64,000 nucleotides of DNA from Escherichia coli (GTDB lineage: Bacteria > Pseudomonadota > Gammaproteobacteria > Enterobacterales > Enterobacteriaceae): assembly GCF_046105845.1 (NCBI RefSeq), contig NZ_CP151004.1, one strand, 5' to 3'. Below, in pieces: positions 29,202 through 52,294 of the stretch (positions within the stretch are counted from its first letter, which is position 1; each line of letters opens with the position of its first letter). The position numbers and the translations under genes were made by a program. The notes under the pieces were generated by a model. The model did no database searches. It was not told the origin of the DNA and saw nothing but the letters and a program-made list of their open reading frames with translations.

Positions 29202-29214
29202 GGTGAATGATGCG

Positions 29215-29249
29215 CTGGCCTGCAAAATTGCATCATTTTTGCAGGCCAG
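29215..29249. repeat. Perfect 13-bp inverted repeat just downstream of lnt
   Basis: CTGGCCTGCAAAA-ttgcatca-TTTTGCAGGCCAG; no U-tract on either strand. Confidence 0.6.
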
Positions 29250-29304
29250 ATAAACCGTTAACACCGCATCCGGTATCAACAAAACATACTTTCTCATTAA
29301 GCGG

Positions 29305-46291: not shown

Positions 46292-47380
46292 ATGCGTAAG
46301 CAGTGGCTCGGGATCTGCATCGCGGCAGGAATGCTCGCGGCATGTACAAGCGATGATGGTCAGCAACAGACGGTAAGTGTACCGCAGCCTGCGGTATGTA
46401 ACGGCCCCATAGTTGAAATTAGCGGGGCGGACCCGCGTTTCGAACCACTGAACGCGACGGCAAATCAGGATTACCAGCGCGACGGTAAAAGCTACAAAAT
46501 CGTGCAGGATCCGTCTCGATTTAGCCAGGCGGGACTGGCGGCAATCTATGATGCCGAACCCGGCAGTAACCTGACGGCCTCTGGCGAAGCTTTCGATCCG
46601 ACACAGCTGACGGCGGCCCATCCGACGCTTCCGATCCCCAGCTACGCCAGAATCACTAACCTGGCTAACGGGCGAATGATCGTGGTGCGCATTAATGATC
46701 GCGGTCCTTACGGCAACGACCGCGTTATTTCGCTTTCTCGCGCGGCAGCTGACCGTCTTAACACGTCAAACAACACCAAAGTTCGTATCGATCCGATTAT
46801 TGTCGCCCAGGATGGTTCGCTTTCTGGTCCTGGTATGGCTTGTACCACAGTTGCCAAACAGACTTACGCCCTGCCTGCACCTCCCGATTTAAGCGGTGGC
46901 GCGGGAACAAGTTCAGTGTCTGGCCCGCAGGGTGACATTCTTCCGGTCAGTAATTCGACGCTAAAAAGCGAAGATCCGACCGGCGCGCCGGTAACCAGCA
47001 GCGGTTTCCTCGGTGCACCAACGACGTTAGCGCCTGGTGTGCTGGAAGGCAGCGAACCAACACCTGCGCCACAGCCCGTTGTTACAGCCCCCTCGACAAC
47101 GCCTGCAACCTCGCCTGCAATGGTGACACCGCAAGCCGCCTCACAAAGCGCCAGCGGCAACTTTATGGTGCAAGTCGGGGCCGTTAGCGATCAGGCTCGT
47201 GCGCAACAGTACCAACAGCAACTAGGACAGAAGTTCGGCGTCCCCGGTCGCGTAACTCAAAATGGCGCGGTCTGGCGGATCCAGCTTGGCCCATTCGCCA
47301 GCAAAGCCGAAGCCAGTACCTTGCAGCAACGTTTGCAAACCGAAGCCCAATTACAGTCATTTATTACCACCGCGCAGTAG
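46292..47380 (+). CDS. rlpA: Septal lytic transglycosylase-like lipoprotein RlpA (362 aa)
   Basis: ORF MRKQWLGICIAAGMLAACTSDD..., lipobox LAAC, DPBB domain, C-terminal SPOR domain. Confidence 0.95.
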   Translation: MRKQWLGICIAAGMLAACTSDDGQQQTVSVPQPAVCNGPIVEISGADPRFEPLNATANQDYQRDGKSYKIVQDPSRFSQAGLAAIYDAEPGSNLTASGEAFDPTQLTAAHPTLPIPSYARITNLANGRMIVVRINDRGPYGNDRVISLSRAAADRLNTSNNTKVRIDPIIVAQDGSLSGPGMACTTVAKQTYALPAPPDLSGGAGTSSVSGPQGDILPVSNSTLKSEDPTGAPVTSSGFLGAPTTLAPGVLEGSEPTPAPQPVVTAPSTTPATSPAMVTPQAASQSASGNFMVQVGAVSDQARAQQYQQQLGQKFGVPGRVTQNGAVWRIQLGPFASKAEASTLQQRLQTEAQLQSFITTAQ

Positions 47381-47519
47381 CGTAAAGCAGGCATCTGATG
47401 TGTCAATTTCTGTAAATGACGTTAACAAAGTCACGCGGAAAGTCAGATGCCTGCCGGTAGTGCATTTGCTATAGTAGGGCACTTTTTTTAATTCCATCAC
47501 GGATGTCGTAGTTCAGACC

Positions 47520-48731
47520 ATGAATACCATTTTTTCCGCTCGTATCATGAAGCGCCTGGCGCTCACCACGGCTCTTTGCACAGCCTTTATCTCTGCTGCA
47601 CATGCCGATGACCTGAATATCAAAACTATGATCCCGGGTGTACCGCAGATCGATGCGGAGTCCTACATCCTGATTGACTATAACTCCGGCAAAGTGCTCG
47701 CCGAACAGAACGCAGATGTCCGCCGCGATCCTGCCAGCCTGACCAAAATGATGACCAGTTACGTTATCGGCCAGGCAATGAAAGCCGGTAAATTTAAAGA
47801 AACTGATTTAGTCACCATCGGCAACGACGCATGGGCTACCGGTAACCCAGTGTTTAAAGGTTCTTCGCTGATGTTCCTCAAACCGGGCATGCAGGTTCCG
47901 GTTTCTCAGCTGATCCGCGGTATTAACCTGCAATCGGGTAACGATGCTTGCGTCGCCATGGCCGATTTTGCCGCTGGTAGCCAGGACGCTTTTGTTGGCT
48001 TGATGAACAGCTACGTTAACGCCCTGGGCCTGAAAAATACCCACTTCCAGACGGTACATGGTCTGGATGCTGATGGTCAGTACAGCTCCGCGCGAGATAT
48101 GGCGCTGATCGGCCAGGCGTTGATCCGTGACGTACCAAATGAATACTCGATCTATAAAGAAAAAGAATTTACGTTTAACGGTATTCGCCAGCTGAACCGT
48201 AACGGTCTGTTATGGGATAACAGCCTGAATGTCGACGGCATCAAAACCGGACACACTGACAAAGCAGGTTACAACCTTGTTGCTTCTGCGACTGAAGGCC
48301 AGATGCGCTTGATCTCTGCGGTGATGGGCGGACGTACTTTTAAAGGCCGTGAAGCCGAAAGTAAAAAACTGCTAACCTGGGGCTTCCGTTTCTTCGAAAC
48401 CGTTAACCCACTGAAAGTAGGTAAAGAGTTCGCCTCTGAACCGGTTTGGTTTGGTGATTCTGATCGCGCTTCGTTAGGTGTTGATAAAGACGTGTACCTG
48501 ACCATTCCGCGTGGCCGCATGAAAGATCTGAAAGCCAGCTATGTGCTGAACAGCAGTGAATTGCATGCGCCGCTGCAAAAGAATCAGGTCGTCGGTACTA
48601 TCAACTTCCAGCTTGATGGCAAAACGATCGAACAACGCCCGCTGGTTGTGCTGCAAGAAATCCCGGAAGGCAACTTCTTCGGCAAAATCATTGATTACAT
48701 TAAATTAATGTTCCATCACTGGTTTGGTTAA
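47520..48731 (+). CDS. dacA: D-alanyl-D-alanine carboxypeptidase PBP5 (403 aa)
   Basis: [63 protein letters not shown]..., SLTK, SGN and KTG motifs. Confidence 0.97.
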
Positions 48732-51267: not shown

Positions 51268-52233
51268 ATGAGTAAACCCATTGTGATGGAACGCGGTGTT
51301 AAATACCGCGATGCCGATAAGATGGCCCTTATCCCGGTTAAAAACGTGGCAACAGAGCGCGAAGCCCTGCTGCGCAAGCCGGAATGGATGAAAATCAAGC
51401 TTCCAGCGGACTCTACACGTATCCAGGGCATCAAAGCCGCAATGCGCAAAAATGGCCTGCATTCTGTCTGCGAGGAAGCCTCCTGCCCTAACCTGGCGGA
51501 ATGCTTCAACCACGGCACAGCAACGTTTATGATCCTCGGCGCTATTTGTACCCGCCGTTGTCCGTTCTGTGACGTTGCCCATGGTCGCCCGGTAGCTCCG
51601 GATGCCAATGAACCAGTGAAACTGGCGCAGACCATTGCCGATATGGCGCTGCGTTATGTGGTTATCACCTCCGTTGACCGTGATGACCTGCGCGATGGCG
51701 GTGCCCAGCACTTTGCGGATTGCATTACTGCCATTCGGGAAAAAAGCCCGCAAATCAAAATTGAAACTCTGGTGCCGGATTTCCGCGGTCGTATGGATCG
51801 TGCTCTGGATATTCTGACCGCCACACCACCAGATGTGTTCAACCATAACCTGGAAAACGTACCGCGTATTTACCGTCAGGTACGGCCTGGTGCAGATTAC
51901 AACTGGTCGCTGAAGCTGCTGGAACGCTTTAAAGAAGCGCATCCGGAAATCCCGACCAAGTCTGGTCTGATGGTGGGTCTGGGTGAAACCAATGAAGAAA
52001 TTATTGAGGTAATGCGCGACCTGCGCCGTCATGGTGTGACGATGTTAACGCTGGGGCAATATTTGCAGCCAAGCCGCCATCACCTGCCGGTTCAACGTTA
52101 CGTTAGCCCGGATGAGTTCGACGAAATGAAAGCCGAAGCGCTGGCGATGGGCTTTACCCATGCTGCATGCGGTCCGTTTGTCCGCTCGTCTTACCACGCC
52201 GATTTGCAGGCGAAAGGGATGGAAGTTAAGTAA
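51268..52233 (+). CDS. lipA: Lipoyl synthase LipA (321 aa)
   Basis: [29 protein letters not shown]..., radical-SAM CxxxCxxC (CTRRCPFC) plus auxiliary cluster cysteines. Confidence 0.97.
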
Positions 52234-52264
52234 TCCTGTAATAATTGCTTACATCTGTCTGATA

Positions 52265-52294
52265 AAAAACCCGCTTTTTGAAGCGGGTTTTTTG
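52265..52294. terminator. Bidirectional rho-independent terminator shared by convergent lipA and tatE
   Basis: aaaaaaCCCGCTttttgAAGCGGGtttttt. Confidence 0.7.

Follow-up and report, generated by a model that had tools for sequence, protein, structure and literature searches.

The rpsO terminator / pnp promoter region is an overlapping terminator-promoter junction, in which the signals that end one transcript and start the next share a short spacer, and partial read-through gives both monocistronic and polycistronic RNAs. The spacer between rlpA and dacA of Escherichia coli is arranged in a similar way, though here the overlap reaches the level of single bases: the likely -35 hexamer of dacA lies in the 3′ arm of a long hairpin whose arms enclose the whole promoter-upstream region, and the loop of a weak terminator downstream contains the -10 hexamer of dacA. 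Another comparison is with intrinsic terminators, bidirectional ones among them, which share a stable GC-containing stem after the last gene of an operon and 3′ ends just downstream, here on both strands. The rlpA hairpin differs from them in its loop of 44 nt, as opposed to the 4-11 nt of the canonical terminators in the window (the whole stretch of 64,000 nucleotides that was analysed), and the sequence-only reading was thus right to call the spacing unusual for a terminator. It also has no abutting U-tract, its RNA ends lie 10-14 nt out, and read-through is documented.

Resemblances are also found to the protective stem-loops described at transcript 3′ ends (Dar and Sorek 2018, PMC6061677) and to REP-type stabilisers, which share with the rlpA hairpin the absence of a U-tract, a sharp 3′ end a few nucleotides downstream and a presumed role as a barrier to 3′-to-5′ exonucleases. 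Unlike the protective stem-loops of Rho-terminated transcripts, the rlpA hairpin has near it none of the Rho-termination regions of Adams et al. 2021, and the likely preceding step is a stop at a weak intrinsic terminator placed 20 nt beyond; unlike the REP-type stabilisers, it is a single-copy sequence. Small RNAs derived from 3′UTRs are similar in being stable structured fragments at the 3′ end of an mRNA, with a reported internal start in this case, but the rlpA hairpin lacks a terminator U-tail, a known association with Hfq or ProQ and an outlying abundance, and it is nameless in Rfam and in the literature searched. It is best filed as an uncharacterised addition to the class of 3′-end protective stem-loops, with the unusual feature of a base-for-base overlap with the promoter of the next gene. 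It reveals no new kind of mechanism, being a real but fairly ordinary element. The 3′ terminus is already public in tables of transcript ends, but we found no description of the hairpin, of how its arms covary or of the dacA promoter that it overlaps.

The gene rlpA (46292-47380, + strand, stop codon TAG at 47378-47380) is the last of the operon rsfS-rlmH-mrdA-mrdB-rlpA and is followed by dacA, which encodes PBP5 (47520-48731, + strand); both were located from the list of open reading frames and from the RefSeq annotation, for rlpA that of identical E. coli sequence. The window is chromosomal DNA of E. coli; its segment 47300-47560 is present at no less than 95% identity in 5424 of 5426 complete E. 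coli genomes, where it is the annotated rlpA-dacA junction. A perfect 12-bp inverted repeat enclosing 44 nt had been proposed at 47386-47397 and 47442-47453; the repeat and its spacing stand, with these coordinates one base too far left, the arms being GCAGGCATCTGA (47387-47398) and TCAGATGCCTGC (47443-47454). A G-U pair (47399/47442) lengthens the stem from 12 to 13 bp, giving a 5′ arm at 47387-47399 (columns 28-40 of our alignment) and a 3′ arm at 47442-47454 on the + strand. The stem starts 7 nt past the rlpA stop codon and ends 65 nt ahead of the dacA ATG (47520). The predicted fold of the RNA 47384-47457 has an energy of −32.4 kcal/mol, compared to −14.7 ± 2.7 for dinucleotide shuffles (z = −6.5), and none of the 200 shuffles equalled it, so that the long hairpin suggested between the two genes holds up when the RNA is folded. 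In the E. coli minimum-energy fold the 13-bp lower stem (47387-99/47442-54) is followed by a one-sided internal loop of 7 nt and then, within the interior (47400-47441), by two helices, one of 7 bp (47407-13/47435-41) and one of 4 bp (47417-20/47430-33). The lower stem and the inner helix are predicted to stack for approximately 20 bp.

The 12-bp inverted repeat by itself is only mildly unusual in terms of chance frequency: perfect repeats of this length with a loop of at most 100 nt occur at 3 loci of the 64-kb window compared to 0.36 expected, and 26% of first-order random sequences contain at least one. That the hairpin is not a chance structure follows from its conservation and covariation, described below, and not from the repeat. 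The other two perfect repeats of at least 12 bp in the window are both ordinary terminators with loops of 4-11 nt; one (29212-29250) lies between convergent ORFs and has a loop of 9-11 nt, and the other (52262-52293) is a bidirectional A6-stem-T6 terminator between a lipA-like ORF (51268-52233) and a 67-aa ORF on the − strand.

The rlpA hairpin itself received no call in a terminator scan of the + strand. No U-tract directly follows the stem, the sequence on its 3′ side being CGGUAGUGCA; what comes after the stem is CGGUAGUGCAUUUG, and the RNA ends 10-14 nt out. Where a terminator loop is short (about 3-8 nt), the 13-bp stem encloses 42-44 nt. The hairpin sequence occurs once in the 64-kb window, and the complete E. 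coli genomes that carry it (5424 of 5426) have it at a median of one site each, without the many copies of a REP/BIME element; it is therefore not a REP-type repeat. A search of Rfam found no family at gathering score and only two matches at chance level; on the hairpin the higher-scoring one was to a plant microRNA model, with 16.4 bits where the gathering score is 65. The MG1655 annotation carries no feature in the rlpA-dacA spacer.

For a broader comparison we used 80 dacA loci of Enterobacterales, each from the genome of a different GTDB species, and an alignment of the rlpA-dacA spacer from the 49 species that are Enterobacteriaceae. Within E. coli the segment 47375-47470 is at least 99% identical in 5264 of 5424 genomes. 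Across the 49 species, standard pairs fill 78.7% of the cells of the lower stem, compared to 33-40% in controls with the 3′ partner displaced by 1-3 columns. Changes on both sides are seen in 8 of the 13 stem pairs, and the observed covariation was matched by none of 500 column shuffles. For instance, at columns 37 and 91 there are 23 species with U-A, 20 with C-G and 3 with U-G; on a neighbour-joining tree built from dacA this pair changes state 13 times, with wobble intermediates inside Kosakonia, and 47 of the 49 species keep it paired. A similar example is the pair 30/98, which is A-U in 15 species, U-A in 7, G-U in 4 and C-G in 2. On the dacA tree the compensatory changes are many independent events. 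Single-sequence folds give the same long-range stem in almost every locus of the Enterobacteriaceae; RNAalifold on a MAFFT alignment recovers only 6 stem pairs, owing to the fact that the outer pairs shift register between species. The inner helices of the loop are paired in 68% of cells, but their slid controls reach 53-57% with equal or higher covariation.

Erwinia, Mixta and part of the Pantoea loci also keep the stem, and have pairs not seen before, as where CAGGC/GCCUG has become CCGGC/GCCGG, and a covariance model confirmed the Erwinia, Mixta and Pantoea loci and found a single + strand site in the 64-kb window. Conservation of the pairing had been named as a check on the original proposal, and the stem passes it: the pairing is kept across Enterobacteriaceae and Erwiniaceae by compensatory changes, with wobbles that fit an RNA of the + strand. 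In three Pantoea-like loci (L052, L066, L071), the -35 region has a GCCTG whose partner is a CAGGC only a few bases downstream (GCCTGT-AAAA-CAGGC, then TTTG), and a small local hairpin between -35 and -10 replaces the long-range stem.

The covariation also indicates the strand. The nine pairs of the core stem comprise 369 Watson-Crick, 35 G-U and 6 A-C cells; as a G-U pair on the + strand is a C-A mismatch on the − strand, selection acts on the + strand RNA, which has the sense of rlpA. Of 81 loci, 56 likewise fold more stably as the + strand; the E. coli energies are −32.4 kcal/mol for the + strand and −25.7 (z = −4.6) for the − strand. The transcribed strand thus carries a stable hairpin with conserved pairing. 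The two arms are not conserved to the same degree, the mean column identity being 0.87 for the 3′ arm and 0.69 for the 5′ arm, and the interior, at 79%, lies above the 5′ arm. The pattern of substitutions suggests that the 5′ arm evolves to match the 3′ arm, which is itself pinned by promoter function.

Published maps of transcript ends place a boundary at the hairpin. Upstream of the T-run described below, the window position equals 711482 minus the MG1655 coordinate. Term-seq of Adams et al. 2021 (PMC7815308) lists − strand 3′ ends of MG1655 at 664018 (LB, OD 0.4) and 664017 (LB, OD 2.0), which are window positions 47464 and 47465, 10-11 nt beyond the stem. The end was classed there as "orphan", its distance from the rlpA stop being >50 nt (PMC7815308), and that distance is the sole cause of the label. 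The 2023 TRS study (PMC10687069), from its own RNAtag-seq and term-seq, gives termini at 664014-664017 (47465-47468 in the window) under the label "Primary rlpA", and a second terminus at 663995, which is the fifth U of the T-run. Two K-12 data sets, obtained independently, thus agree on a primary 3′ terminus of rlpA 10-14 nt beyond the stem, and the dominant mature ends (47464-47468, + strand), at which the RNA finishes in ...CCGGUAGUGCA/U/U/U/G, are a few nucleotides beyond the hairpin; all the 3′ ends published in the Term-seq and TRS data are downstream of the stem and none is inside it. On the opposite strand a weak 3′ end, reproducible in both studies, falls at 47381-47382, 5-6 nt past the stem, with the tail UUUACG; it is listed at 664101 (+) by Adams et al. 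2021 (PMC7815308) and at 664100 (+) as "Antisense rlpA" in the TRS tables (PMC10687069). A sharp transcript boundary therefore adjoins the hairpin on both strands. The Rho-termination regions in Supplementary file 2 of Adams et al. 2021 include none at 6635xx-6640xx, where the assay is blind because the dacA promoter, firing 16 nt downstream, masks any effect.

SMRT-Cappable-seq (PMC6131387) placed the dacA start at 664001 of MG1655, both for b0632 alone and for b0632, b0631 and b0630 together; we found no entry matching the coordinates of the locus in the supplements of Cappable-seq 2016. This start is A47481 on the + strand, six nucleotides after TATAGT, 27 nt beyond the stem and 13-17 nt past the rlpA termini, so that the transcript boundary looked for between the genes is present both as an end and as a start. 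As dacA starts downstream of the stem, the hairpin belongs to the 3′ end of the upstream operon RNA and is absent from the dacA mRNA. The same data (PMC6131387) contain a read-through transcript rlpA-dacA-ybeD, flagged as a novel operon variant, which begins at 665332 in mrdB (about 46150 in the window).

Around the dacA start there is a weak hairpin with a T-run (47459-47489, + strand, −8.1 kcal/mol), formed by pairs 47459-63/47479-83 and 47465-69/47474-78, with the dacA -10 hexamer in its loop. It would resemble an intrinsic terminator for transcripts from upstream, and not for those of dacA itself. The T-run (47483-47489, dacA +3 to +9) begins 2 nt after the dacA start and is conserved, with T7 here, T6 in MG1655 and T5-T8 in other genera; a U-run in this position might permit UTP-sensitive reiterative transcription.

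A point missed by the sequence-only reading is that the DNA of the 3′ arm and of the interior belongs to the dacA promoter as well. The extended -10 element TGCTATAGT (47467-47475, with TG at 47467-68 and the hexamer at 47470-75) is invariant in Enterobacteriaceae and nearly so across Enterobacterales, and its spacing fits the mapped start. The sequence ATGCCT (47447-47452), 17 bp upstream of the -10 and inside the 3′ arm, is the likely -35 hexamer, as judged from its position and from the invariant T, G and C columns of the 3′ arm, which are exactly those that match TTGACA. A sigma-70 promoter scan of 47000-47900 reported nothing, missing even the real dacA promoter with its weak -35.

The promoter DNA spanned by the hairpin comprises the -35 hexamer in the 3′ arm and, in the interior, a region rich in A and a tandem repeat similar to a CpxR box. 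This repeat, GTCAA-tttct-GTAAA (47402-47416, about -79 to -65 from the dacA start), is one mismatch from GTAAA-N5-GTAAA, which we take to be the CpxR box consensus. The repeat occurs at a fixed distance from the dacA ATG in most loci (L002-L077), 8 of them with a perfect box and 18 with one mismatch. The perfect boxes include those of Yersinia, a Serratia and Hafnia-like loci, which have no long hairpin and carry a canonical rlpA terminator upstream of the box. As the repeat is kept where the hairpin is absent, the conservation of the loop is at least partly that of a DNA-level element of the dacA promoter, in which the repeat is a putative CpxR site. On this basis dacA (PBP5) may be under the control of Cpx or of another OmpR-family regulator; a literature search on Cpx control of dacA found nothing relevant. 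A CRP-like reading of TGTAA...T(T/C)AACA was dropped, as by eye its spacing and half-site do not fit.

The large loop would be a consequence of the spacer being only about 140 nt long in Enterobacteriaceae, with the promoter-upstream DNA of dacA lying between the arms. In this family the spacer measures 135-153 nt, compared to 163-246 nt for those loci of Yersiniaceae, Hafniaceae and Brenneria that have a separate small terminator. A canonical terminator of GC-stem and U-tract follows rlpA in Rahnella, Hafnia-like and Brenneria loci with their longer spacers, and occupies the place of the hairpin in Yersiniaceae, Hafniaceae and Pectobacteriaceae. These lengths fit a compaction, by which a spacer without space for a separate terminator would have come to pair the 5′ arm, directly after the stop, with the -35 region across the promoter-upstream DNA.

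We consider it probable, at roughly 0.6, that the structure is a U-tract-less hairpin at the 3′ end of the rsfS-rlmH-mrdA-mrdB-rlpA mRNA, which acts as an exonuclease barrier and insulator and is backed by a weak terminator. The hairpin would mark the end of the upstream operon message and probably protects that end. Only transcripts arriving from upstream would carry it. Polymerases that pass the stem would mostly stop at the weak hairpin and U-run (47459-47489), or end elsewhere, and 3′-to-5′ exonucleases would then trim the RNA back until the very stable stem stalls them at a distance of approximately 10-14 nt, which would produce the ends at 47464-47468. The stem and the weak terminator together would shield the dacA promoter from upstream transcription while allowing some read-through into dacA, and on the opposite strand the same stem followed by UUUAC would end the weak antisense transcript. 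We infer the trimming and the insulation from the positions of the ends and starts, which, with the conserved pairing, support what the sequence-only reading had suggested, an element of RNA stability or processing that sets the mrdAB-rlpA transcript apart from dacA. RNase II and PNPase stall roughly 6-10 nt from a stem, and the rlpA ends, at 10-14 nt, are slightly beyond this distance, which counts against a barrier. Cleavage by RNase E, or pausing or termination, at AUUUG would give identical ends.

The latter possibility corresponds to a reading in which the hairpin is a non-canonical intrinsic terminator or pause-release element that stops polymerase in AUUUG, 10-14 nt out, with no trimming. 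The mapped 3′ ends do fall in AUUUG, canonical terminators hold the equivalent position in other families, the − strand stem followed by UUUAC behaves as a weak terminator, and in E. coli 7 further, imperfect pairs (47374-82/47455-63) can lengthen the helix until it lies 1 nt short of the U's, at −40.6 kcal/mol, which would likewise account for the mapped ends. We nevertheless consider it unlikely, since no U-tract abuts the conserved stem, the terminator scan made no call there, and a proper U-run with its own 3′ terminus is found 20 nt further downstream. The outer extension is present in 20 of 49 species compared to 18.8 expected with a shuffled 5′ flank; with no energy gain either, a giant canonical terminator, in which an outer helix reaching the U-tract is a conserved feature, was rejected. 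A site at which an endonuclease cuts the read-through rlpA-dacA RNA, with RNase III acting inside the long stem or RNase E directly behind it, would make use of the approximately 20 bp of stem and inner helix and of the rlpA-dacA-ybeD transcripts known to exist. RNase E prefers the motif RN↓WUU, with the cut before U-rich sequence, and the ends at A-U↓U-U-G resemble this preference. Cleavage by RNase III is unlikely because no mapped end falls inside the stem, and the published data examined gave no 5′ end that a downstream cleavage product would have. A cut by RNase E is compatible, and partly identical, with the barrier model, since the hairpin would then protect the upstream product; as an explanation of its own we find endonuclease cleavage very improbable.

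The hairpin might instead belong to a free-standing, conserved structured small RNA of approximately 98 nt (47367 to 47464-65) that acts in trans or binds a protein such as ProQ. A dRNA-seq start at 664115 of MG1655 (47367, + strand, within the last rlpA codons) lies 97-98 nt upstream of the 3′ end and appears in Supplementary Data 4 of the TRS study (PMC10687069) as "Nearby TSS 664115", attributed to Thomason 2015 and within 150 nt of the terminus; the LB OD 2.0 end was kept in a table of Adams et al. 2021 (PMC7815308) that requires a start within 200 nt upstream; and the interior sequence is well conserved. In the TRS data, read starts in the rlpA 3′UTR are 3-4.7 times those in the coding sequence, but this ratio is not an outlier in any library. 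Upstream of 47367 there is no convincing -10 or -35, and the stretch varies with the rlpA codons between species; 47368, the base after the reported start, is C in the window and T in MG1655. Additionally the RNA has no U-tail of the kind found on Hfq-dependent small RNAs, has no match in Rfam and coincides with no small RNA named at the locus in the literature searched, where we found nothing relevant on a link of rlpA to small RNAs, ProQ or Hfq. The conservation of the interior is partly explained by DNA-level promoter elements, which persist without the hairpin. A small RNA is thus improbable, and so, to a like degree, is the more specific idea that its conserved interior serves the control of the cell envelope, in trans or as a decoy for a binding protein. 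A related and equally improbable reading links the folding of the upstream transcript, which copies the -35 hexamer, to the activity of the dacA promoter. The conserved loop may nevertheless have a role at the RNA level. Least probable, and only by a very small chance the correct reading, is a repeat that matters as DNA, either a cruciform, whose extrusion a 44-nt spacer makes unlikely, or inverted sites about 56 bp apart for a dacA regulator such as BolA, with the RNA pairing incidental. The whole element does lie within the promoter-upstream DNA of dacA, and BolA is reported to bind the dacA promoter; its ChIP consensus is YYGCCAGH, each arm holds a TGCCTG that is one mismatch from the GCCAG core, and Cedecea-like species have an exact GCCAG. 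But this motif is weak, being present with one mismatch in 39.5% of gene 5′ regions, and most of the covariation falls beyond the GCC(A/T)G core and obeys the rules of base pairing, U-G intermediates included. The excess of G-U over A-C cells would be meaningless for duplex DNA, and the RNA 3′ ends adjoin the stem on both strands.

As a protective 3′-end hairpin, the structure accounts for where and how the mRNA of an essential elongation operon (rsfS-rlmH-mrdA-mrdB-rlpA) ends, and for the "orphan" class of that end in one atlas. It is also a case of dual coding, in which 13 bp are fixed on one strand by the -35 region and a partner 56 nt away keeps pace with them by compensatory substitutions and wobbles. 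As mutations of the 5′ arm spare the core promoter of dacA, they would be a clean tool, both for the effect of U-tract-less 3′ hairpins on mRNA ends and for that of upstream transcription on PBP5 expression.

Further along the dacA 5′UTR, the annotated dacA ATG has no obvious Shine-Dalgarno sequence at normal spacing. The motif CACGGATGT (47498-47511) is conserved out to Edwardsiella and Yersinia, and contains a mini-ORF, ATG TCG TAG (47503-47511), which is 2-4 codons long in other genera.
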